From Candidatus Latescibacterota bacterium (lineage in GTDB: Bacteria > Latescibacterota > UBA2968 > UBA8231), in contig OZ242318.1 in assembly GCA_965208105.1 (NCBI GenBank), positions 736,001 through 800,000 of the forward strand: a DNA stretch of 64,000 nt, read 5' to 3'. How positions within the stretch are numbered: the first letter of the stretch is position 1; each line of letters begins with the position of its first letter. The notes under the pieces are model-generated. The model searched no databases, had not been told where the DNA came from, and was given only the letters and a program-made list of their open reading frames with translations. Positions 3,210-54,916 of this stretch are shown here, piece after piece. Position numbers and translations under genes: made by a program.

Positions 3210-5525
3210 ATGGCCAACAGTTACTCGGACTATCCGGAATTTACCGGCAACGGCAAGTACAAAGTGATCGGAACCCGGCCTGTGCGCCACGATGGGGTGG
3301 ACAAGGTCACCGGCCGCGCCATCTACGGCGCCGACGTTCGCCTCCCCGACCTGCTCTACGGCAAGGTCCTGCGCAGCCCCCATTCCCATGCCCGCATCCT
3401 CTCCATCGACACCAGCAAGGCTCTCGGCCTGGCCGGGGTCCGCGCAGTGGCAACGGCTGACGATCTCGTGGAAACGGTGGACAAGCTCTCCAGCATCGGC
3501 GAGACCCAGGTCAACATCCGCGAAGTCGCCCAGAATTCACTGGCCTCCGGCAAGGTCCTCTACAAGGGCCACGCGGTAGCCGCAGTGGCCGCCACAAGCC
3601 CTCACATCGCCGAGGAGGCCCTCGACCTGATCGAAGTGGAGTACGAGCCCCTGACTCCCGTCACGGACGTGCGCGACGCCATGAGGGACGACGCTCCCCT
3701 CCTCGACGAGGACAGGACGACCACGTCCATGGGCGAGGACACCGGCAAGAAGAGCAACATCGCCAGCCACATCCAATTCAAGATGGGCGACACCGGCCAA
3801 GGCTTTGCCGCAGCCGACATCGTCGTCGAGCGCGAGTTCACGACGGCCATGGTGCACCAGGGGTACATCGAGCCCCACAACACGACGGTCATCTGGAAGA
3901 ACGACGGAACAATTACCGTCTGGGTCAGCACTCAGGGGCCCTTTCAGATCCGCGCTCAGCTGTCCGAGGTCCTCCAGGTGCCCATCTCCAAGATCAAGGT
4001 CATTCCCTGCGAAATCGGGGGCGGCTTCGGCGGGAAGTTCCCCATCTACATGGAGCCGGCCGCGGCGGTCATGTCTCACAAAACGGGCCATCCGGTCAAG
4101 ATGATAATGAGCCGTTCCGAGGTTTTCGAGGCCAGCGGACCGGCGCCGGGCAGCTACACCCGGGTCAAGATGGGGGCCAGGGAGGACGGCACCATCGTCG
4201 CCGCCGAGATCTACACGGCCTACGAGGCAGGCGCCTTTCCCGGGTCGTCGGTCGGCGCCGGAGCACAGTGCATCCTGGCGCCATATTACATTGAGAACGT
4301 GATCATCGACGGCTACGACGTGGTCTCCAACAAACCCAAATCCACTGCCTACCGCGCCCCGGGCGCGCCCCAGGCCGCTTTCGCCTCGGAGAGCGTCATT
4401 GACGAAATCGCCGCGAAGCTGGGTCTGGACCCGCTGGAGCTGCGACTGAAGAACGCCGCGCGCGAGGGCACCCGCCGGGCTGACGGAACGGTATACAGCC
4501 GCATCGGCTGCGAGGAGACGGTGCAGGCGGCCATCGCCAGCGATCACTTCAAGTCCCCTCCGCCACGGGGTCCCTGGCGCGGCAGGGGTGTGGCCTCGGG
4601 CTTCTGGTTCAACGGCGGCGGCCAGTCCTCGGCCACCATAAGCGTCAGCACGGACGGCACCGTCAACCTCCTCGAGGGTTCGGTGGACATCGGCGGCTCG
4701 CGCGCCGCCATGGCGATGATCGTGGCCGAAACCCTGGGGCTCAAGGCGGACGAGGTCAACCCCATGGTGGCCGACACCGACTCCATCGGTTACCACGACG
4801 GAACGGGCGGCAGCCGGGTGGCATACGCCACAGGTTACGCCTGCTACCTGGCCGCCCGGGACATCTCCGAGAAAATGTGCGTGCGCGCCGCCCGCCAGCT
4901 TGAAGTGGAAGAGGGCGATGTGCAGTTCGACGGCGGCACCTTCGCGTGCAAATCCGATCCGGGGAGGAAGCTGACCTTCAAGGAGGTGGCAGCCGAGCAG
5001 GGAAGCACCGGCGGCCCCATTGAGGGCTCCGGATCGATCAACAGCAACGGGCCGGGGAATGCCTTTGCCACCCACATTGTCGACGTGGAGGTAGACCCCG
5101 AGACCGGCAAGGTCAAGATTCTGCGCTACACCGCCGTGCAGGACGTGGGCAAGGCCATCCATCCCAGCTACGTCGAGGGTCAGATGCAGGGCGGGGTTGT
5201 CCAGGGCATCGGCTGGGCCCTTACCGAAGGCTATTTCTTCAACCAGGACGGCAGCATGGCCAACTCAACCTTTCTCGATTACCGCATGCCCACCACCCTG
5301 GACCTGCCCCTGGTCGAGACGGTGCTGGTGGAGGTTCCCAATCCGGGAAGTCCACACGGTATTCGCGGCGTCGGCGAAGTGCCCATAGTACCGCCAATGG
5401 CCGCCGTCGGCAACGCCATCTACCAGGCGACCGGATGCCGCCTGCAGGACCTGCCAATGACTCCCGACAACATAGTCGCCGCCCTGCAGGCCAGACGGGG
5501 AGAATTTCAGGAAGCTGCCGGATAG
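3210..5525 (+). CDS. xanthine dehydrogenase family molybdopterin-binding subunit
   Basis: DKVTGRAIY, STQG, GGGFGGK, AYRAPG, GQMQGG, GVGE motifs. Confidence 0.93.
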   Translation: MANSYSDYPEFTGNGKYKVIGTRPVRHDGVDKVTGRAIYGADVRLPDLLYGKVLRSPHSHARILSIDTSKALGLAGVRAVATADDLVETVDKLSSIGETQVNIREVAQNSLASGKVLYKGHAVAAVAATSPHIAEEALDLIEVEYEPLTPVTDVRDAMRDDAPLLDEDRTTTSMGEDTGKKSNIASHIQFKMGDTGQGFAAADIVVEREFTTAMVHQGYIEPHNTTVIWKNDGTITVWVSTQGPFQIRAQLSEVLQVPISKIKVIPCEIGGGFGGKFPIYMEPAAAVMSHKTGHPVKMIMSRSEVFEASGPAPGSYTRVKMGAREDGTIVAAEIYTAYEAGAFPGSSVGAGAQCILAPYYIENVIIDGYDVVSNKPKSTAYRAPGAPQAAFASESVIDEIAAKLGLDPLELRLKNAAREGTRRADGTVYSRIGCEETVQAAIASDHFKSPPPRGPWRGRGVASGFWFNGGGQSSATISVSTDGTVNLLEGSVDIGGSRAAMAMIVAETLGLKADEVNPMVADTDSIGYHDGTGGSRVAYATGYACYLAARDISEKMCVRAARQLEVEEGDVQFDGGTFACKSDPGRKLTFKEVAAEQGSTGGPIEGSGSINSNGPGNAFATHIVDVEVDPETGKVKILRYTAVQDVGKAIHPSYVEGQMQGGVVQGIGWALTEGYFFNQDGSMANSTFLDYRMPTTLDLPLVETVLVEVPNPGSPHGIRGVGEVPIVPPMAAVGNAIYQATGCRLQDLPMTPDNIVAALQARRGEFQEAAG

Positions 5526-5599
5526 CACTTCGACCGCCATTTACGGAGAATTGCCCGAGCCACCTCTCCGGGTGGCCGGGCATTTTCCTGCCGCAACCC

Positions 5600-6448
5600 A
5601 TGTCCGCCTCGATAGACCCCCAATTCTTTCTTCGAACCATGTTGCCGGTGGTGCGGCAGTGCGCCCGCGCCTCCCTCATTTTCTATGGACAGATCGCCGA
5701 TATCGGCAAGGCCGCCGACACCAGCCTGACCGGCTCGTTGGCGCAGCGGGCTTCCAGCGTCCTTACCGCCATCGACAGCGCCGTCCAGGACATAATCCTC
5801 AGCGTCGTGCTCCAGCACTTCCCGGGCATCAGGTGCATCGCCGAGGAGAACACTCCTCTCAAAAGGAGATTCGCCGGCAACGACTCCCCCTACGCCCTCA
5901 TCCTCGACCCGATTGACGGCACCGTCCACTTCCAGAAGGGGGACGCGCCCTACCACATCTCACTTGGTCTTGCCCGTGAGGGAGGAATGGTCGCTGCCAT
6001 AGTGGCCCGTCCCAACGAGGACAAGATCTTCACCGCGTTGCGCGGCCGCGGCGCCTACCTTCGCCAGGGCAATGGCCGGCCCCGGCGCTTGCGCCTGGGC
6101 AAGAGGCCGCGCACCAACAGGATCTTCATCTCATCGAAAGCGCGAGCCTACCAGGAGGCGGTGCGTCCGGACCTGGAGCCCCGCGAGTACCCCATCGGTG
6201 CCGCCCTGGTACTGACCCAGGTGGCAGAGGGCGAGCTGTGCGCCTACCTGACCCGCCAGGTCGAGGTCTACGACGTGGGGCCTCCCTCCCTGATCGCCAC
6301 CGAGGCCGGGGCGCGCTGCGCCCTCAGGGGAGGCCAGGCGCCGCGCTATCACCACAGCCGCAAATTCTCCTACTACATGTGCACTGCGTCCCGGGAACTC
6401 GAATCCACCCTCGCCCAGCTCCTGCAATCGCGCAGGAAACAGGCATAG
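5600..6448 (+). CDS. inositol monophosphatase family protein
   Basis: AEE and LDPIDGT metal-binding motifs; YDVG..LIATEAGA. Confidence 0.85.
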   Translation: MSASIDPQFFLRTMLPVVRQCARASLIFYGQIADIGKAADTSLTGSLAQRASSVLTAIDSAVQDIILSVVLQHFPGIRCIAEENTPLKRRFAGNDSPYALILDPIDGTVHFQKGDAPYHISLGLAREGGMVAAIVARPNEDKIFTALRGRGAYLRQGNGRPRRLRLGKRPRTNRIFISSKARAYQEAVRPDLEPREYPIGAALVLTQVAEGELCAYLTRQVEVYDVGPPSLIATEAGARCALRGGQAPRYHHSRKFSYYMCTASRELESTLAQLLQSRRKQA

Positions 6449-6665: not shown

Positions 6666-9410
6666 ATGAACCCTCCCCGACACTTCATCCTTGTCCTGCC
6701 CCTTCTGCTTGGGGCCTTGCCCCGGGTGGAAGCCGGGGCGCAGATTCTGCAAATCCACCCCCAATCCCTGGATTTCGGCACGGTGAAAATCGGCCTCCGG
6801 CTGCAGGAGAGGGTTCTGCTCAAAAATACCGGGGAGGCGGACCTCGAGGTCCTGGTGCGCCTGCGGGGAGACCGGTTCAGCGCATCTCCCGACACCTTGC
6901 TTCTCGAGAGCCAGGCCGAGGGATCGGTGGAGGTCGGCTTCACCGCGGCGGCAGAGGGTTCCTACACGGGCGAACTGGCCTTGCAGGCAATGGGGCTCCC
7001 CACCAGTGAGAGTCTCACGGTAACTTTGCGGGGGGCTGCAGCCCGTTCCGGCTTGCGCATCACCCCCGACCCCGCCCGGGGTCTCCAGGTTGAGCCCACG
7101 GCCATAGGAGCCAGGAGCCGGCACAGTCTCACCCTGGCCAACCCCAGCCCGGTTCCACTTTGCGTCGACAGCCTCACCCTCCACCCTGCCACCGGTCCCT
7201 TCCATCTCGGTCACCGCGGACCTCTGCAGCTGCATCCGGGCCAGGAAAGGAAGGTGGACCTGATCTTCGCACCCGGGCACGGCGGGAGATTCGAGCACAG
7301 GCTCGTGGTCCACTCCGCCGATCTGGACCCGGAGGATGTCGGAATTACCCTCGAGGGAGAGGGACTGGCTCCCATCGCCTCCTTCTCTCCCCATCCCCGG
7401 GTGGGAATGGACTTCGGCAGCGTGGAGCTGGGCAAGAGCGTGGAGCGCCCACTCACCGTCCTCAACCTGGGAAGGTCCAACCTCCGCATCGAGGGGCTCC
7501 ACATATCCGGACAGTCCTTCACCGCTTCCTGGGAGGAATCGCCGGACACCTCGGTGGCTGCGGGGGCCCAGGTCCAGGTGGGAATCGCCTTTAATCCATA
7601 TCGGGAAGGATCGTCCAGCGCCACCCTGACCCTGCGCACCAACGACCCCGACCAGCTCAGCGTGGAGATTCCTCTGTCGGCCACTGCCCGGATCAGCCCG
7701 GCGCAGATCGAAATCCTCAACGAGGACCCCATCGACTTCGGCGGGGTAGCTCTCGGCGACTATGCCAGGGACCGCCTGCTGTTGTGGAACAGGGGCGGCC
7801 GTCCCCACGCGGTGGAGGCGCGCATCGAGGACGGCAGGGAGCGGGAGTTCCTCCTCGAATCGCCGGCGCCGCTGCTGCAGGCCGGAGGCAGCAAAGGCAT
7901 CCCGCTCAAATTCTCTCCGCGCGAGGGAGGCGAGCGCCGCGCCGTGCTCGTGGTGGAAACCGAAAGGGGTCCCCGGCGGGTTTCCTTGCGAGGCTATGGT
8001 CAGTTTCTCAAGCTGAGCCCCGCCGCGCTCGACTTCGACCGCGTCGCCGTGGGGGAAAGCAACAGCCTGGTAGTCGAGCTCCTCAACGAGGGCAACGTCG
8101 ATTTCACCGTAGAGGGGATCGATTCCTCCAACGAGGACTTTACCGCCCACACCGAGATAGGCTCCGCAGACAAGGTCATCCTGCCTGCCCACGGCCAGCG
8201 CTCCCTGCCCCTCGGGGTTACCTTCTCTCCTTCCGCCCGCGGCGCCGTTTCCTCCGCCCTGCGCGTCGCAGGCTACTGGGAAGAAGGCAGGGAAACCCTG
8301 GAGATTCTGCTCACCGGAAAAGGGGTTGCGGGACAGATCGACCTGCATCCGCCAGGACCGCTCGAGTTCGGCCACGTGGTGCTGGGAGAAAGAGAGGCAC
8401 TAGCCCTTGTCGCGACCAACAGCGGCGACAGCGAATCCAGGGTAGAGGGGCGTTCCCTCAGCAGCGAAGCCCGCCTTGAGCCGGCGGTCTTCACCCTGCA
8501 GCCGGGGGAGTCAGCCCCCCTGAAGCTATACTTCAGTCCTGCGGCATTGGGGGAGCGCCACGCCCAGGTCCTTTTGATCAGCGATGGAATCAAGGAAAGG
8601 GCGCGGCCCATCCAGATCAAAGGCAAGGGGGCCCTCGAGGACATCGACCTGTCCAGAATCACCACCATCACCACGGTGCGCCGGTCGCGGACCGACACCC
8701 TGGAGGTGGAATGGGACAATACACCGTTCATCGTCCCCGATGAAAGCAAGATCCATCTGTTCTTCTCAAGCGTGGATTCTCTGCGCAATGCCCTGGTGGG
8801 GCGCAAGCTGGCGGTGGAGTGGGTAAAGTTGGACCACAACTACGACCCCAAGGGCAGCGTCAGGAGGACCGAGCTGCGGATCTACGAGTCGAGCCGGGGC
8901 GACCTCGAGTTGGAGGACTTCAACCTTCGCCTGCAGGAATCATCCAACAAGCGGGTCAGGCTCCAGGTGACCAGCCGCAGTCACCCCGGCGCCGCGCCCC
9001 AGAGCATCTCGCAAATCTTTGAGGTCGGCGGCTGGAAATGGGAATTCGAAGCCAAGCCCCTGGTATCGTTCCTGACCATACGTCCGGGACGCAGCCACAG
9101 GAACGCGGACGGGACGATTGTGAAAGGAAAGACCGAGCGTCTGATCGGCCTTCCCGGCCTTGCCTTCGCCGGGTGGCACAATCCGGAAAATCAATCCATC
9201 TCGGGGATTCATTTCACCGCCATCGGCAACGTTCTCGAAGCCCTGTCCACGGACAACTCCATCGCCATCTCCCTGGGTCTCGCGGTCTCCCTCTACAAGG
9301 ACAAATTTCTCATAGGCTGTGGATGGGACGTCTACGACAGCCGCCCCAGGGCCAGGCGCGAGGGCACCCAGGACTACCTCATGACCTTCAAGTACTCAGG
9401 GCTGTTCTGA
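6666..9410 (+). CDS. secreted/surface protein with ~6 choice-of-anchor-D (ASH/Hydin-type Ig-like) repeats
   Basis: Signal peptide. Repeated LDFG.V.xG....L.l.N.G...L.v...F.P units. Beta-rich C-terminus ending in Phe. Confidence 0.75.
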   Translation: MNPPRHFILVLPLLLGALPRVEAGAQILQIHPQSLDFGTVKIGLRLQERVLLKNTGEADLEVLVRLRGDRFSASPDTLLLESQAEGSVEVGFTAAAEGSYTGELALQAMGLPTSESLTVTLRGAAARSGLRITPDPARGLQVEPTAIGARSRHSLTLANPSPVPLCVDSLTLHPATGPFHLGHRGPLQLHPGQERKVDLIFAPGHGGRFEHRLVVHSADLDPEDVGITLEGEGLAPIASFSPHPRVGMDFGSVELGKSVERPLTVLNLGRSNLRIEGLHISGQSFTASWEESPDTSVAAGAQVQVGIAFNPYREGSSSATLTLRTNDPDQLSVEIPLSATARISPAQIEILNEDPIDFGGVALGDYARDRLLLWNRGGRPHAVEARIEDGREREFLLESPAPLLQAGGSKGIPLKFSPREGGERRAVLVVETERGPRRVSLRGYGQFLKLSPAALDFDRVAVGESNSLVVELLNEGNVDFTVEGIDSSNEDFTAHTEIGSADKVILPAHGQRSLPLGVTFSPSARGAVSSALRVAGYWEEGRETLEILLTGKGVAGQIDLHPPGPLEFGHVVLGEREALALVATNSGDSESRVEGRSLSSEARLEPAVFTLQPGESAPLKLYFSPAALGERHAQVLLISDGIKERARPIQIKGKGALEDIDLSRITTITTVRRSRTDTLEVEWDNTPFIVPDESKIHLFFSSVDSLRNALVGRKLAVEWVKLDHNYDPKGSVRRTELRIYESSRGDLELEDFNLRLQESSNKRVRLQVTSRSHPGAAPQSISQIFEVGGWKWEFEAKPLVSFLTIRPGRSHRNADGTIVKGKTERLIGLPGLAFAGWHNPENQSISGIHFTAIGNVLEALSTDNSIAISLGLAVSLYKDKFLIGCGWDVYDSRPRARREGTQDYLMTFKYSGLF

Positions 9411-10400
9411 TGTCACCTGGGCACCTTGCCCCGCAACGAGCTTCTCGTAAATCCCGATGGCCGAACACAGGTCCTGTACCGCAAGTCCGGTCAGGTAGAC
9501 CAGGCGAGGGACTTCCGTGCGGGGCTGCAGTCGACCGCAGGCGGCATCGCCCACGTTAAGTATCCTTCCCGCTTCATCCCTGGCAAAGGAAATGAGCTCG
9601 AACCGTCCCGCTGCCAGCGCATGTTTGAACTCGCCGGAATGCCTGGCCTGCCCCAATTCATCAACCACAACCTCCCGCTGCTCCATAACCTCCTGAGGCA
9701 ACTGACGGGTGCGGCCGTCTCCCCCCAGGACCACTAGACAGGGAATCCCCTCCAGTGCTTCAACGGAGAAGATCGGCCGGGGGGTTGGCACCGCCGCGAT
9801 CACGGCGTCGGCGCCGTCGATGCAGGTTTCAATGCTGTCGGCGAGGTTCAGTGAAGCTCGCAGACGTTTCTCCATGGCCAGGGCGAACTTCTCCCGGTTC
9901 CGGGTGCTCCGGCTGGTGACCCCGATTTCCTCGAGATCGAAAAGCCGGTCCAGGGCGGGGGCCAGTGCCCTTGCTATGCGGCCCGTGCCGACAAGGCCGA
10001 CCCGGCGCAGCGGCAACGGCGCGAGGTACTTGAGGCCGAGGGCGCCGGCGGCGCCCGTCCGCATGTCGGTGAGGTAGTCGGCCTCCATGGAGACCGCTCT
10101 GTCCCGGCGCAAATCTTTCAGGGTGAGGGAGGCGGTGCGCGTTTCCAACCGGCCCCGACCCACGTCCGACCATTCCTCTATAATCTTGCAAGCCCGGTAT
10201 CTCCCGGGCCATCGCGCCGCCATCTCCAGGCGAAAGTATCCCAGCCCCTTCTGCTTTTCGATCACCTCCAGTCTCGGCGAGTTCAACAACACCCCCTGTC
10301 CATGAAGCCGAAACGCCCGGTCGCAGGCGGCAAGAAAATCGTCGACGCGGAAAAGGGATCGGAGCTCATCTTCGCCTATAGAAAGCAGCGTGTCCACCAC
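9396..10400 (-). CDS. ornithine cyclodeaminase/mu-crystallin family protein
   Basis: LTDMRTGAAGALG, GTGRIAR, GLAVQD. GTG start at 10400/10397 after GGAGG. Confidence 0.8.
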   Translation of the reverse strand: MVDTLLSIGEDELRSLFRVDDFLAACDRAFRLHGQGVLLNSPRLEVIEKQKGLGYFRLEMAARWPGRYRACKIIEEWSDVGRGRLETRTASLTLKDLRRDRAVSMEADYLTDMRTGAAGALGLKYLAPLPLRRVGLVGTGRIARALAPALDRLFDLEEIGVTSRSTRNREKFALAMEKRLRASLNLADSIETCIDGADAVIAAVPTPRPIFSVEALEGIPCLVVLGGDGRTRQLPQEVMEQREVVVDELGQARHSGEFKHALAAGRFELISFARDEAGRILNVGDAACGRLQPRTEVPRLVYLTGLAVQDLCSAIGIYEKLVAGQGAQVTSEQP

Positions 10401-47297: not shown

Positions 47298-48068
47298 TCA
47301 GATCCCGATCTCGCCTCTCAGGTAGCGCTTCCAGAGCCTCTCGGTGATGTCGACGTAGTCGGCATCAACACCAAAGCGCCCGAAATATTGGCACAGCCGC
47401 TGGATATCCCGGGCGAAAAAGCCGAATGCGTTCCGATTGCAAAGCGTGTCCACCGCTTGCGGGAAGTCGATAATCTTCAAGCTTTCCTTCCAATAAAGAA
47501 CGTTGAAGGCGGACAGATCACCATGGACCAGATTACAGGCCAGAAACAATTCCACGTTGCGGATCAGCCTTTTGAACATCCTCTGTGCTTCATCCCGCTC
47601 CAAGGCCACCTCCTGTAGCAAGGGAGCGGCGCGTTCCTCGTCGCCTATGTAACCCATCAGCATCGCATGCCCTCCGCTGGCCACCGGTTCAGGCACGTCG
47701 GCGCCGATGTCGTGCAGCCGCTGCATAGTTGTGAATTCGTGGCTGATCCAGGCTGCGTCCTCGGTCGCCTTGCCGGTTCTGCTCTTCCTCTTGATTGCCC
47801 TCAGCAGCCGCTTGTCGGTGGTGACTGTGCGGCCAGCCTTATAGGCCGAGTAATTCTTCATCTCCCGATGGCCCCTGTGACGGTAGACCTTGGCGGCCAG
47901 TAGATCGTATCCGACGGCCGGGTTGGCTCGGCAGCAGTATACGTTTGCTTCCTTGCCTCCCTTTGCCCTGTAGAGCACGTCGGTGAACCAGCCATCCGCG
48001 TAAAATTCCTCCATGGCCTGGCGAACCCATGCGCGCTCGAATTTGGTCCCTTCGAAATGAAAATCCAA
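47298..48068 (-). CDS. RIO1-family Ser/Thr kinase
   Basis: GGKEANVY, AAKVY, VHGDLSAFNVL, IIDFPQAV. Confidence 0.92.
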   Translation of the reverse strand: MDFHFEGTKFERAWVRQAMEEFYADGWFTDVLYRAKGGKEANVYCCRANPAVGYDLLAAKVYRHRGHREMKNYSAYKAGRTVTTDKRLLRAIKRKSRTGKATEDAAWISHEFTTMQRLHDIGADVPEPVASGGHAMLMGYIGDEERAAPLLQEVALERDEAQRMFKRLIRNVELFLACNLVHGDLSAFNVLYWKESLKIIDFPQAVDTLCNRNAFGFFARDIQRLCQYFGRFGVDADYVDITERLWKRYLRGEIGI

Positions 48069-48152
48069 GACGGTCTCCTGTAGCGTAGTACATCAATTTT
48101 ACCCGATGGCGAATGCACTTAAGCGTCACCCAGGGACTCCGTTCAGGGGGAG

Positions 48153-49076
48153 TCATGTGCTCAATTCCTTGAAGTAGGCAAGTGAAGTGTCGGCCGTGGC
48201 ATAACCCTCCGATTCGTAAAGCGATAGGGCAGCAAGATTCTTCACCCGGCAATTAAGAACACTCGTTTTGTAACCTTCAAACCGCATTTCGCGAAGCGCG
48301 CGGCGCAGAAGACAGCGCCCGAATCCCCTTCGACGATAGACTTCCTTCACCCCGAGCCACCGCGTATAGCTACACGACTCCAGGGCGTCGATGCCCGCGT
48401 AGGTGCGTCCGGATTGGGATCGGCAGCTGCCCATGACCTCGCCGTCGACAGTGACTTTAACCCAGATGTTCGGACGGGCGCCGGCACCCTCGGTCTTCTC
48501 TATGACGACATCGGCCTCCGGAGGCAGGTCGGCGAGGGGAACAGATTCCAACGATCGTTCCATCGTCAGGTGCTCATCGTGGGCCCTGTACCCGCTCTCC
48601 CGCAGCAGAGACGAAACGTGGCTAATACGGGTCGAGAGGATACCGACCTTATGGTTGTGAAAGGGGTATCCATGATACAGCGGGAAGGCGTCTATACGGG
48701 GTAGGCCCTCCGCCTGGAAGATCTGCTCCGAATGGCTTAGAAGCACATGACCGACTTCCCTCCGATCCGGTGAGAATGCAAGGAATCGGATGATTCCGCA
48801 CTCGATATCCTCACCGTCGACCTCGACATCACTGCTGGCGCAGAGATGGGCGAATCCAACAGGTCTCCTTGCATCCGACGCGGTGATCAGTCTTTGTGAC
48901 CGCGCGGTGGCACAGGATTCGTCGTCGGACTCCACCGGGATTATTCCGGTCGCGAATTCGTCCGGCCAGACGGCGTAGTAGTACGGCGCGTCTGCCGTCG
49001 ATTCGACCCACAGGGCATGAAGCTCGGCTGCCCGGTCCATGTCCCACTGTTCAATCAATTTTGTCCCCACCGACAT
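48153..49076 (-). CDS. tandem GNAT acetyltransferase
   Basis: V...YRRRGFGR.L and N..A.SLYE..GY; degenerate N-terminal GNAT. Confidence 0.8.
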   Translation of the reverse strand: MSVGTKLIEQWDMDRAAELHALWVESTADAPYYYAVWPDEFATGIIPVESDDESCATARSQRLITASDARRPVGFAHLCASSDVEVDGEDIECGIIRFLAFSPDRREVGHVLLSHSEQIFQAEGLPRIDAFPLYHGYPFHNHKVGILSTRISHVSSLLRESGYRAHDEHLTMERSLESVPLADLPPEADVVIEKTEGAGARPNIWVKVTVDGEVMGSCRSQSGRTYAGIDALESCSYTRWLGVKEVYRRRGFGRCLLRRALREMRFEGYKTSVLNCRVKNLAALSLYESEGYATADTSLAYFKELST

Positions 49077-49226
49077 GGATCCCGTCGAGCGTGAGCATGG
49101 ACCCATGATGATTGCTTCCCCGGCAAGAACCCAGGTAATACAGCCAGGTGATCAGTCGAGAAAACGGTGTCTGTCTTGCAGTTTGGCATGTTTAATTCCG
49201 TGTCCCAAGGTCGAAGAGGTGATATT

Positions 49227-49258
49227 CCTGGGGCAGCGGTCGCCGCCGCTGCCCCAGG
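49227..49258. repeat. 13-bp perfect inverted repeat (hairpin)
   Basis: cctggggcagcgg / ccgctgccccagg; no U-tract. Confidence 0.8.
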
Positions 49259-49293
49259 CCGGTTTCGCAATGCCGCTGCGCGTCAAAGAGCCA

Positions 49294-49386
49294 TTATCTG
49301 AGTAAGCGCAGGAGCGGCATCATAGCGAATACCAAAAGGCTGATGAGTCCGTACATCAGTCCCTGGTTGATGATCTCGCGTCGCAT
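49294..49386 (-). CDS. 30-aa small membrane peptide
   Basis: AAGGAG SD; MRREIINQGLMYGLISLLVFAMMPLLRLLR. Confidence 0.5.
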   Translation of the reverse strand: MRREIINQGLMYGLISLLVFAMMPLLRLLR

Positions 49387-49489
49387 CGTGTGGTTGCTCC
49401 TTGCGATGAGGTTCCTGGTTGGCTTGGTGAACGTCGCGCAGACCCGTCGCCGCCCGCCCGGGCAGGGCGGCAACGACGAGCATCTTTCA

Positions 49490-49535
49490 CAAAAAAAGAG
49501 GCCGCGGCGCTTTGTTCTTCGCGCCGCGGCCTCTT
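49490..49535 (-). terminator. intrinsic terminator
   Basis: 15-bp inverted repeat aagaggccgcggcgc/gcgccgcggcctctt plus a T-run on the minus strand. Confidence 0.8.
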
Positions 49536-49565
49536 GCCACGTTGAGTTTCTCGCAACAGCGAGCC

Positions 49566-49718
49566 TCAGTCGGGAGGGATGGATCCCCCTCCTCTCGGCG
49601 CGAATTGGGTCTTTTCGAGCTGCATACCGGCGGCCAGAATGGCGCACCCGCCATAAAGATTTCCCCCTGCAGCCCTGCGCGGCGTCCCGCGCATTTCGAA
49701 GCGATCTACACTTTTCAT
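49566..49718 (-). CDS. 50-aa small ORF / possible leader peptide
   Basis: AGGAGG SD 6 nt before ATG; TTGACA at 49812-49817 upstream; terminator downstream. MKSVDRFEM...APRGGGSIPPD. Confidence 0.45.
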   Translation of the reverse strand: MKSVDRFEMRGTPRRAAGGNLYGGCAILAAGMQLEKTQFAPRGGGSIPPD

Positions 49719-49894
49719 TTTCATCCTCCTGAGCGCGCTCTCAAAAGCGTCGTGGAGTCTGTCATTCGCCCTTGTGAATCTGATTTAGAGTTACGAGGAG
49801 GCGTGAAACAATGTCAAGAGAGGGCGAAAAAAAATCACAAAAAAACAAAATGAGGTTACATCAAATTCCTGGGCAGGCTCGGGCAAGATGGCAA

Positions 49895-51235
49895 TTAGAG
49901 AGGGTCCATGCGCATGGGCATGAGCACCGCGCTATGCTTCCCGTCCTCCACGTCGAAGTGAAGCGCCGAGAGACCGTCCTTGAAGCGGATGCGGATTTCA
50001 TCGGCTGCCTCCCCCAGTGCCGACACGATGGTCTTCAGGAAATGGTGGTTGACCCCCACCCGCAAGCTATCCGCGTCGAGACCGGTCAGGCGGATCGGAC
50101 AGCCCACCGCGTAAGCCCACTCAGGCTCTGCTGGACTCAGGTTTGGCGCGGCTTCCTCGATCTGGTAGAATCCCTGATCGCGGCTGGTGCGCAGGGTGAG
50201 TCTCCCCTCCAGAGCGCATAGGCGCAGCTCAACCAGAGGTCTGTATTCCCATCCTTCGTCCTCGACCCGGTGCCTCGGCCCCAGGTACGGCTCGATTGCT
50301 TCCACACATCCCATCAGCTCGGCGCTTCCCACGACGGCGGAGATGGGTCCCGACCGTCCCACCGCCTTCTCGTACTGAACGTAGGGGCCGGGGACTACCG
50401 GAAACGTCACCCTGGCTCCATCCGCCGTCTTCAGGGTGGTTTCCTCCTCTTCGATCACCAGGGTGGCACCCTGCGCCGGCGGTACCTCCCCGCAGTCCAC
50501 CGAGCTCAGTATCACCGGGCTCGCCAGGGAACTCAGGCCCGCGCTCGACCAGTTGAGCAGGCGCATTCCATCGCAGGCTACCATCCTGCCCCCGGCGTCC
50601 AGGCAGACACACTCCAGAATCGGCCGGTTGGGATCATCGCTGCGAAAGCGGGACAGGTGACGCAATCCAACCAGATCGGCGGCGGTGAGCTCGAAAGTTT
50701 GGGAGCAGCTGGACTCGGACATGGCGATTACCTCCTTTTGCAGACGTGACCGGGCCTTCTGCAGGCGGCTGCGGACGGTATCCGTTTTGAGGTCGAGCAG
50801 AACTGCCGTCTGGCGGTAGGAATAGCCCTTCAGGTAGTGGTGTACGATCACCTCTTGCTGCGCCGCGGACAGCCGGCCCAGCGCTGCCCGCATCAGGCTG
50901 CGAAGCTGCCTCTCCTCCGGTACGGGCGCAGGAACCGTGTCGACCCGTTTGAGCAGATCGAGCTGAACGAGACGCCGGCGCTGCCACATGCGGACATGGT
51001 TATCGGCAATGGAACACAGCCAGGCACCGAAGCTCGCGGGATTGCGCAGGGTGGCCAACTGCTGAAACGCGGCCATGAATACTTCCTGCAGCAGATCCTC
51101 CGCCGTCTCCCGCGAACCCAGTTTCGGGGCGATCCGGGCCATCAGCCAACCTGCGTGCTCTTCGACCAGCAGGGCGAAAGCTCCGGCGTCCCCGGCGGTG
51201 GCAGCTCTGACGCGATTTTCCTCATCCACACACAT
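49895..51235 (-). CDS. ECF sigma factor fused to beta-sliding-clamp (DnaN) domains II-III
   Basis: Sigma2 AEDLLQEVF..F.AWL..IA.N and sigma4 GYSY...A..L.....VRSRL.KAR, followed by SDDPNRPIL, VACDGMRL, GPYVQY, VGVN..FL and VLMPMRM. Confidence 0.85.
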   Translation of the reverse strand: MCVDEENRVRAATAGDAGAFALLVEEHAGWLMARIAPKLGSRETAEDLLQEVFMAAFQQLATLRNPASFGAWLCSIADNHVRMWQRRRLVQLDLLKRVDTVPAPVPEERQLRSLMRAALGRLSAAQQEVIVHHYLKGYSYRQTAVLLDLKTDTVRSRLQKARSRLQKEVIAMSESSCSQTFELTAADLVGLRHLSRFRSDDPNRPILECVCLDAGGRMVACDGMRLLNWSSAGLSSLASPVILSSVDCGEVPPAQGATLVIEEEETTLKTADGARVTFPVVPGPYVQYEKAVGRSGPISAVVGSAELMGCVEAIEPYLGPRHRVEDEGWEYRPLVELRLCALEGRLTLRTSRDQGFYQIEEAAPNLSPAEPEWAYAVGCPIRLTGLDADSLRVGVNHHFLKTIVSALGEAADEIRIRFKDGLSALHFDVEDGKHSAVLMPMRMDPL

Positions 51236-51497
51236 GATCTACCATATAGTTGCACCGCATCACCGGAAGTATCCCGTGGTGGAAATTCTATTGCGACCTG
51301 AGGATCTTCCGCCTACAGGATGTGGCCTTGCGAGGACGGTTGTCACCGGGCCGCCGAGTTCCCTGAATTCTATTCTGACCAAGCACAGCCTGGTGTGTCG
51401 GCGGTCTTCCGTATTCGGACCCGGTGCCCGAAGATTGCTTCGCTGCCATGCATTTTGTAAAATTGCCCATCCAAAGCAAAATTCAATTGACTTGTTC

Positions 51498-54101: not shown

Positions 54102-54916
54102 TTGCCAGCCCAAATACATATCGGTCCGCAGAATGGCTCCCTGGTCCTTGCCGGCGGCGGGGAGCTCGGTGAGATCTATCGTAAATTCGTTGCCTTGGCC
54201 GGAGGCAGCAGCGCACCCATAGCCCTCGTGCCCACCGCGGCCGAAAGAGACTACTCCGGCCTGTACGCGCCGGATATGGAGGCGTTCATGCAGGCTGGAG
54301 CGCACAATCTCAACTTGCTGCATACCCGGGACAGAGAGGTCGCGGACTCTGAGAAATTCTCGTCCAGGCTTCGAGACGCTCAAGGTGTGTGGTTCTCGGG
54401 GGGGAGACACTGGCGGGTTACTGATGCGTATCTGAACACCCGGACCCACGATGCACTATTCGCTCTGCTCGACCGAGGCGGCGCAATCGGCGCTCCTCCG
54501 CCGGAGCTACTCTGCAGGGCACATTCATGATCAGAGGGGATATCAGTGGCGCTGAGATCGTCATTGGCGACCACGTTAAAGGGTTTGGGTTTCTTCGCAA
54601 TGTATCAATCGACCAGCATCACCTGGTCCGCAACCGCCATTATGACATGCTGGAGGTAGTTGAGGCCCATCCCGAGCTACTTGGCATTGGGATAGACGAG
54701 GGCACGGCAATTGTGGTTCAGGGCGATGAGTTCGAGGTTCTTGGGAAAAGCTATGTCGCCATCTATGACAACCAGCGGACTTTCGGACGAGCAGGGCGGT
54801 TTTACTTTCTTCGCTCGGGTGACCGATACAATATGCACACCAGAGAAATACTGGAACCAGAGGTCAATGTCAGAGGGTTTGATCGGCTACGGAGCGAAAC
54901 CTGGGAGGGCAAATGA
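54102..54916 (+). pseudogene. cyanophycinase / peptidase S51, frameshifted
   Basis: L.LAGGG, PTA, WFSGG, IDQH..RNR, GIDEGT. A 1-nt deletion near 54492 breaks the GGSSAG nucleophile motif. Confidence 0.8.

Follow-up and report, generated by a model that had tools for sequence, protein, structure and literature searches.

In a 64,000-nt stretch of the genome of a Candidatus Latescibacterota bacterium (GenBank assembly GCA_965208105.1, contig OZ242318.1, positions 736,001 to 800,000 of the forward strand; hereafter, the window), we describe a gene whose product joins a complete extracytoplasmic function (ECF) sigma factor to a homologue of domains II and III of the bacterial sliding clamp DnaN (the beta clamp), domain I being absent. 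The fusion is real and conserved in a family of related proteins. At the sequence level the protein-binding pocket of the clamp is selectively retained, whereas the features needed to close a ring around DNA are largely lost, and the linker between the two sigma regions carries a motif of the type that clamps bind. Our tentative proposal is that the linker is a cis ligand of the pocket and that a competing ligand would switch the sigma factor.

An ECF sigma factor fused to a clamp-derived module

The gene is an open reading frame (ORF) of 446 aa on the minus strand, with its ATG at 51235 (ORF list and translation); the plus-strand reading of 49895–51235 was rejected, being closed by many stops. 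Every motif string quoted in the first-pass annotation of the window is present in the minus-strand translation. The gene comprises the following parts.

49895–51235, minus strand: the whole coding sequence, ECF sigma factor plus clamp-derived module; 446 aa plus stop, with homologues of equal length and architecture.
50972–51169, minus strand: sigma region 2, residues 23–88; Pfam PF04542 (Sigma70_r2), E 4e-11.
50894–50971, minus strand: sigma2–sigma4 linker, residues 89–114, between the Pfam r2 and r4_2 boundaries.
50951–50965, minus strand: QLDLL, residues 91–95, a motif of the canonical clamp-binding type, located where the linker begins; from the translation.
50741–50893, minus strand: sigma region 4, residues 115–165; Pfam PF08281 (Sigma70_r4_2), E 8.7e-13.
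50354–50710, minus strand: clamp domain II-like part, approximately residues 176–294; aligned in structure with E. coli beta from residue 122 onwards, the II/III boundary being approximate.
49904–50353, minus strand: clamp domain III-like part, approximately residues 295–444; aligned in structure with E. coli beta as far as residue 366.

Residues 1–171 form a complete ECF sigma factor with regions 2 and 4, as the first-pass annotation had it: both Pfam domains match, the NCBIfam model TIGR02937 gives 82.1 bits (cut-off 42.9), and the family profile finds ECF sigma structures in the PDB with E-values down to 2e-18. No Pfam match to Sigma70_r3 or Sigma70_r1 was obtained in the protein even at E <= 10, and the linker of 26 residues (89–114) is short, as in ECF (group 4) sigma factors. 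Across 77 aligned fusions, the ECF motif residues Q50 and W72 are invariant, and D47 and N79 nearly so. The N-terminal part of the linker is conserved, while residues 99–110 are variable in column composition and fall where the models described below are least confident (predicted local distance difference test, pLDDT, below 50 for residues 97–114 in model 1; mean 52 for residues 101–110 in model 2). The names given to such fusions in databases are limited to ECF sigma factor and hypothetical protein.

Fold and homology of the C-terminal half

Sequence libraries are silent on residues 172–446. No significant clamp match was found for this half in Pfam, NCBIfam or PDB sequence (phmmer) searches: the families DNA_pol3_beta, DNA_pol3_beta_2 and DNA_pol3_beta_3 stay below their gathering thresholds, this protein being unmatched even at E <= 10, and the family profile reaches only an E-value of about 1.3 for the clamp half against PDB sequences. 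Some divergent relatives score 19–29 bits for clamp Pfam families, the cut-off being 27. Thus, of the library matches suggested beforehand, those to Sigma70_r2 and Sigma70_r4_2 were obtained and those to DNA_pol3_beta_2 and DNA_pol3_beta_3 were not, and the clamp assignment was hence examined by structure prediction and profile comparison.

Two AlphaFold2 models were built, the first from 42 homologues (mean pLDDT 77.6) and the second from 77 more diverse sequences (mean pLDDT 90.7, predicted template modelling score 0.72), and both give a beta-clamp fold. Among the matches listed by Foldseek for model 1, all were bacterial beta clamps (E about 2e-13). VIA-align superposed models 1 and 2 on the clamp 7evp_A with Z-scores of 23.6 and 24.8 and root mean square deviations (rmsd) of 2.3 and 2.2 A over 231 and 232 residues, respectively, and on the E. 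coli clamp 8vat_G with a Z-score of 24.0, model residues 176–443 corresponding to beta residues 122–366. The geometry of the two domains together superposes on beta at an rmsd of 2.2–2.6 A. Beta residues 122–366 make up domains II and III, and nothing in the protein corresponds to domain I; residues 1–171 are the sigma factor.

Profile comparison points in the same direction. With a query profile from 24 C-terminal modules, hhalign matched the 390-aa DnaN of the same genome at 94.4% (E 8.4e-8, 208 columns, DnaN residues 157–388) and E. coli DnaN at 37.8%, over the last 54 columns only. A profile search of 1.84 billion representatives yielded 168 matches at E <= 1e-3 and reached canonical three-domain DnaN at E-values from 1e-7 to 1e-4, while the ESM Atlas gave only leads below 0.9, to short clusters named putative DNA polymerase III beta. 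The SnoaL Pfam family, the source of the extension in ECF41, has no match in the C-terminal extension. On the predicted structures and profile homology, the C-terminal half is a homologue of DnaN domains II and III without domain I, in agreement with the assignment first made from short motifs. It also has features of its own: insertions at approximately residues 318–333 and 352–373 of the domain III-like part are specific to the family, and H322, Y331, P333, W373 and P440 are conserved across it.

Distribution and integrity of the family

Matches to the C-terminal half fall into 53 protein clusters at E <= 1e-3, nearly all of 440–470 aa and with sigma Pfam domains, and a full-length copy is found in approximately 30 species-level genomes, which are labelled as Latescibacterota metagenome-assembled genomes, with a few labelled Gemmatimonadota. 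Exactly one match per genome at E <= 1e-10 was observed in 67 of 168 Latescibacterota genomes; the carriers include 15 of the 52 high-quality genomes and 11 of the 49 genera. They are confined to four families (31/75, 2/3, 18/22 and 15/31 genomes), with none in the ten other families (0/36). All of the long divergent relatives tested (n = 33; 403–494 aa, 23–41% identical) have both Sigma70_r2 and r4, one divergent member being a record from Candidatus Handelsmanbacteria, and the extension of 275 aa, well over 50 aa, is conserved in the 77 aligned fusions.

The source genome, a single contig of 4.85 Mb in which the ORF is continuous, has a single copy of the fused module. It also has one ordinary dnaN, which adjoins recF and has intact pocket motifs, and which was the sole match in a genome-wide search with PF02768.

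The gene is dispensable: it is absent from 101 of the 168 genomes of the phylum and truncated in two close relatives. At a locus from the same genus (L024), the fusion gene matches residues 1–257 only and is followed directly by a gene for a thiamine pyrophosphate (TPP) enzyme; this locus lacks the RIO kinase gene, the GNAT gene and the 788-nt gap that occupy 47298–49894 of the window, which reflects either a deletion there or an insertion here. The fusion copy at L027, from a second genome, is also truncated, so that truncated copies are present in the L024 genome and at least one other.

Free-standing two-domain clamps were considered as well. The 260–290-aa matches that could represent them came, where examined, from contigs of about 1–2 kb, and one of their clusters has a 466-aa member; thus, these clamp-like matches are probably fragments. 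In a metagenomic protein of 348 aa (P0098), a SEC-C metal-binding motif comes after a two-domain module of the clamp type; the protein is encoded on a 2-kb contig, and its N-terminus may be cut. Matches to two ankyrin-repeat proteins (P0140 and P0150) were rejected as spurious.

Clamp features retained and lost

For the comparison of pockets, 57 family modules were aligned with E. coli DnaN and with the DnaN of the source genome, and 20 pocket positions were considered, of which 18 are named in a review (PMC11139829) and two, S346 and L366, we take to belong to the pocket as well. The domain II-like part contains the pocket elements R204, VACDGMRL and GPYVQY, and the domain III-like part contains N396, F399 and the terminal LMPMR (alignment). 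The mean identity to E. coli DnaN was 0.55 at the pocket positions versus 0.15 elsewhere, and that to the genome's own DnaN 0.52 versus 0.18, but these contrasts are inflated, as the pocket motifs are the best-conserved parts of DnaN in any case and also anchor a low-identity alignment. The family consensus coincides with the E. coli or the own DnaN residue in 15 of 19 pocket columns, compared with 61 of 217 other columns.

In E. coli numbering, the pocket residues that are mostly kept are R152, T172, D173, G174, R176, L177, N320, Y323 (either F or Y in the family), M362, P363, M364 and R365; H175 and R246 are variable. Among the 57 modules, R152 is kept in 49, G174 and R176 in 47 each, N320 in 53, M362 in 51 and P363 in 56. 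At the level of sequence, the protein-binding pocket is therefore selectively retained, its positions being kept far above the rest of the module, as the first-pass annotation had supposed.

The features that belong to the DNA-encircling ring show the opposite. The interface of the beta ring, as given in PMC11139829, consists of I78 and F106 of domain I and I272 and L273 of domain III. Here domain I is absent, and I272 and L273 align to P316 and Y317 (a conserved proline and then either Tyr or Phe), after which comes an insertion of 11–13 residues peculiar to the family, so that the ring-closing interface of DnaN is not preserved. The median length of the second channel helix of domain II is 13 residues, whereas E. 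coli DnaN has 17 and the own DnaN 20, and in both models it is a 3-residue helix and otherwise a loop (DSSP). Positive charge is also missing from the four helices that would line the channel, which range from neutral to acidic (mean net charges of -0.33, -2.18, -2.26 and -0.05, versus +1, 0, +1 and 0 in E. coli and 0, +3, +1 and +1 in the own DnaN), and the median isoelectric point (pI) of the module family is 4.93. Given the loss of domain I, the interface, one channel helix and the positive charge, we consider a DNA-encircling ring unlikely, and we infer that the module would rather be a peptide-binding regulatory domain.

A clamp-binding-type motif in the sigma linker

The canonical clamp-binding motif (CBM) is Q-phi-x-[L/M]-[F/L] in a flexible region, natural examples being QLNLF of Pol V and QPLLI of MutL (PMC11139829). 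QLDLL at residues 91–95, at the start of the linker, fits this pattern. In an alignment of 42 sequences, Q91 is found in 41, L92 in 40, N, D or S at position 93 in 40, L94 in 36 and L95 in 41, and Q91 is nearly invariant even among members that are 23–41% identical. With this genome's ORFs of at least 250 aa as background, the expected number per 26 residues is 0.0097 for a canonical CBM and 0.0003 for QL[DNS]L[FL].

In the full set of 77 fusions, the linker site is canonical in 37, MutL-like (QPx[LM][FLI]) in 5 and partial (Q-phi-x-[LMFW]) in 23, with none of these in 12. The canonical motif is largely limited to the clade of the window, where 35 of 41 fusions have it; hence the feature common to the family is looser. 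A strict QLxL[LFI], present in only about 4 of 33 divergent fusions, was accordingly discarded as a family-wide feature and replaced by Q-phi-x-[LMFW].

The control set consisted of all ECFs without a clamp module that the same scan had retrieved and in which the AWLxSIA anchor is also present. Of the 72 anchored fusions, 61 have Q-phi-x-[LMFW] exactly 19 residues after W72, compared with none of 28 clamp-less ECFs; this contrast overstates the independence of the data, as fusions and controls are each groups of kin, and it is not a statistical test. In the interval from W+16 to W+23, the pattern is found in 63 of 72 anchored fusions and again in none of the 28 controls.

A possible switch in cis

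ECF sigma factors bearing a C-terminal extension typically have no anti-sigma factors (PMC7826278). In ECF41 the SnoaL-like extension touches a linker motif and prevents binding to the core, while CorE depends on a CXC motif within its linker together with its C-terminal domain (both PMC8999054). Given the ECF41 analogy, and as the clamp pocket has a single conserved activity, peptide binding, we propose that the pocket captures the sigma factor's own linker in cis and that a competing ligand switches it, a reading to which we give somewhat less than an even chance.

The mechanism would be as follows. The preferred ligand of the pseudo-clamp pocket would be the linker motif, QLDLL here and Q-phi-x-[LMFW] in the family as a whole. 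Its capture in cis would hold regions 2 and 4 so that they could not load properly on the RNA polymerase core or, alternatively, the capture would be needed for the active conformation. A competitor for either the pocket or the motif would then flip the switch, the candidates being a CBM-bearing protein, a pocket-binding small molecule and the cell's own beta clamp.

Prediction of the complex between the clamp module (172–446) and the linker (84–115) gave a score of 0.46 (runs, 0.40, 0.46 and 0.52), and the best of three controls 0.02; the pLDDT of the partner was at least 44, and the runs coincided in 58% or more of their contacts. In the calibration of the tool, 58 of 80 solved complexes reached the mark, as did 2 of 110 mismatched pairs, and scores of 0.60 or below were obtained by only 7 of those 80 complexes plus both mismatches. 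The prediction thus lends weak support to binding of the linker by the pocket in cis.

Apart from the inflated pocket and linker contrasts noted above, several observations weigh against this proposal. As the prediction was supplied with our own alignment, its score may reflect memory of the many solved clamp–peptide complexes. Both full-length AlphaFold2 models place residues 91–95 within a helix (66–100), not as an extended peptide bound to the pocket, the pLDDT of helix residues 91–100 being 49 in model 1 and 67 in model 2. The top 50 pairs in linker–clamp covariation include 2 pocket positions versus 3.3 expected (effective number of sequences about 42), and the top pairs lie in the domain III insertion and follow the splits between clades. 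Among the 36 divergent fusions, only 2 have a canonical motif, compared with 5 that are MutL-like, 22 partial and 7 with none. Finally, the hydrophobic pattern i, i+1, i+3, i+7 could be that of an amphipathic helix packing elsewhere.

The cis switch could also be part of a broader scheme, which we regard as improbable. The linker CBM would toggle between the fused pocket, where the sigma factor is off, and a released state, brought about by replisome or repair proteins, DNA-loaded beta clamp, antibiotics or toxins that take the pocket or the motif, so that transcription would report the occupancy of the clamp network.

Alternative explanations

If the pocket were a sensor or decoy for an external ligand only, the main idea of the first-pass annotation, such as a CBM protein, a toxin, a phage protein or a natural product, the linker motif would serve something else, for example a contact with RNA polymerase or with sigma4. 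The retained pocket positions and the lack of an anti-sigma gene nearby would fit this, as would the helical, undocked linker motif in the AlphaFold2 models and the covariation, which gives no link between linker and pocket. However, this explanation leaves unaccounted for both the motif at a fixed linker site, seen in most of the anchored fusions and in none of the clamp-less ECFs, and the textbook CBM in the clade of the window, and it has no linked partner gene. We consider it unlikely, if still a serious contender.

A second alternative is that ligand binding has been lost and the module remains as a scaffold for dimerisation, stability or a contact with RNA polymerase through the domain III insertions. 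It draws on the conserved family-specific residues there (H322, Y331, P333, W373), on the position of the top covariation pairs in the same insertion region and on the dispensability of a gene that most genomes of the phylum lack. On the other hand, a pocket kept far above the rest of the module among members that are 23–41% identical would scarcely be expected unless the pocket itself were under selection, and we hold this alternative to be decidedly unlikely.

The linker motif might instead bind the real DNA-loaded beta clamp, tethering the sigma factor to sites of replication or repair in the manner of phage T4, with the fused pseudo-clamp masking the motif intramolecularly. The motif is, after all, a canonical CBM, the pocket motifs of the genome's single ordinary dnaN are intact, and clamp-dependent transcription has reported precedents, in the activation of T4 late transcription by the gp45 clamp (PMC2988020) and in the late genes of phage Mu (bioRxiv 10.1101/2025.01.04.631326). 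Against this, the divergent members mostly lack a full CBM. In addition, the linker of ECF holoenzymes is buried in RNA polymerase, which would clash with clamp binding at initiation. The tether thus has a slim chance.

A PCNA-like trimeric ring, in which three two-domain units surround DNA and tether the sigma factor, is a very unlikely arrangement. PCNA does have two clamp-fold domains per chain, as here, and domains II and III superpose well on beta (rmsd 2.2–2.6 A), but the interface pair I272/L273 is replaced by Pro-Tyr/Phe with the insertion of 11–13 residues, the second channel helix of domain II is reduced and the would-be channel helices are neutral to acidic, so that the trimerisation envisaged in the first-pass annotation is not borne out.

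An assembly chimera or a mis-called ORF, which was to be suspected had there been no homologous fusion elsewhere, is refuted, with a negligible probability left to it, by the same uninterrupted architecture on many independent long contigs and complete chromosomes and by the continuous ORF in the single-contig genome.

Upstream element and gene neighbourhood

None of the 18 neighbouring ORFs of the window matches an anti-sigma Pfam family, with the reservation that divergent anti-sigma factors can escape such a search, and no neighbour is conserved across 30 related loci. The absence of an adjacent anti-sigma gene, remarked on already in the first-pass annotation, thus holds and fits regulation in cis. 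No replication gene was found among the neighbours. Among the related loci, only L024 is syntenic with the 18 neighbours in the window, and the genes found repeatedly beside the fusion in one clade have housekeeping roles (enoyl-CoA hydratase, HAD, CDP-alcohol phosphatidyltransferase, GNAT and Ffh).

Upstream of the gene lies a bipartite element.

51246–51274, minus strand: GGATAC-N15-GCAACTAT, ending 10 nt before the ATG; from the sequence.

The element, as GGATAC-N15/16-GCAACTAT followed by GGTGAT(C/T)ATG, recurs at 29 of 30 related loci irrespective of which gene lies upstream, and its exact form occurs once in the 4.85-Mb genome. It is a candidate promoter, possibly autoregulated, which would produce a nearly leaderless mRNA. 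A regulon was sought with this element and none was found: a mismatch-tolerant scan was not enriched over two controls (at most 2 mismatches, 10 matches versus 7 and 10; at most 3 mismatches, 121 versus 131 and 106), and the two matches with one mismatch both lie inside long open frames.

Several further observations concern the surroundings of the gene. The 788-nt gap between the fusion gene and the GNAT gene (49107–49894) has no protein-like ORF and no Pfam or Rfam match, and its local GC content is lower, 0.57; there was no Rfam match anywhere in the window. At 47298–48068 (minus strand), a RIO-type kinase domain (PF01163, E 3e-37), here in a bacterial genome, adjoins a GNAT acetyltransferase of 317 aa. 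Two plus-strand ORFs, 54102–54530 and 54527–54916, overlap by 4 nt and match positions 2–113 and 147–205 of the Peptidase_S51 profile; the pair may be a frameshifted or split gene. At a related locus (L002), ECF–TPR fusions resembling ECF42 stand on either side of the ECF–clamp gene, at 4171–5874 (minus strand) and 7803–9707 (plus strand), and the lineage seems to be rich in ECF sigma factors that carry C-terminal extensions.

Comparison with known systems and implications

The closest known proteins in architecture are ECF41 with its SnoaL-like extension, ECF42 with TPR and ECF238 (CorE) with a Cys-rich domain, which, like the fusion, combine a minimal sigma2–sigma4 core with a C-terminal domain of more than 50 aa and lack a cognate anti-sigma gene. 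The extension of ECF41 and that of CorE each act together with a linker motif particular to the group (PMC8999054 and PMC7826278). Unlike in ECF41, ECF42 and CorE, the extension described here has the fold of DnaN domains II and III.

With bacterial DnaN the module shares the fold of these domains (Z-score up to 24.8) and most residues of pocket subsites I and II, including the C-terminal MPMR. It differs in the absence of domain I, in scores below the Pfam gathering thresholds, in the replaced ring-interface residues, in the loss of one channel helix and the acidic charge of the channel helices, and in its fusion to a sigma factor in a genome that keeps a separate ordinary dnaN.

Two viral systems offer a further comparison. 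T4 late transcription uses the gp45 clamp with the gp55 sigma factor and gp33, the clamp-binding motif being on the sigma side; a clamp-fold protein and a sigma factor are thus coupled through a short sigma-side motif, as is proposed here. The T4 clamp, however, is a separate trimeric ring loaded on DNA and acting in trans, whereas the clamp unit of the fusion is covalently attached, incomplete and probably off DNA. The herpesvirus proteins UL42 and UL44 also have two clamp-fold domains per chain and work without a closed ring of six domains; they bind DNA by a basic face, while the module of the fusion is acidic and attached to a sigma factor.

Literature searches gave no description of an ECF sigma factor with an extension derived from a sliding clamp or DnaN, in line with the first-pass annotation, which knew of no characterised ECF–clamp fusion; fusions of MerR to a clamp, which it did mention, were not described among the literature matches listed, as judged by title and abstract. 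The words clamp, DnaN and polymerase III do not occur in the main texts of the 2021 ECF reclassification (PMC7826278) and a 2022 review (PMC8999054), whose supplements, listing all extension types, could hold such a case. The retained pocket and the linker motif together suggest a so far undescribed transcription switch built into an ECF sigma factor with a clamp-derived C-terminal extension.

ECF sigma factors to which a regulatory domain is fused form an established class, with signals that are mostly unknown. In the present family, the parent protein of the regulatory domain has one conserved biochemical activity, the binding of short QLxLF-type peptides, and such a peptide is found in the sigma factor's own linker; pocket and peptide together point to an unusually specific mechanism that is directly testable, and to a sliding clamp exapted as a peptide-sensing module. 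A compact, engineerable peptide-responsive sigma factor could result. If the broader scheme of release by the clamp network were true, the fusion would be a single-polypeptide cellular counterpart of T4 clamp-activated transcription and would define a new class of ECF signal. If the pocket does sense clamp ligands, transcription in this poorly studied, uncultured phylum would be linked to replication stress or to antibiotics that target the clamp.

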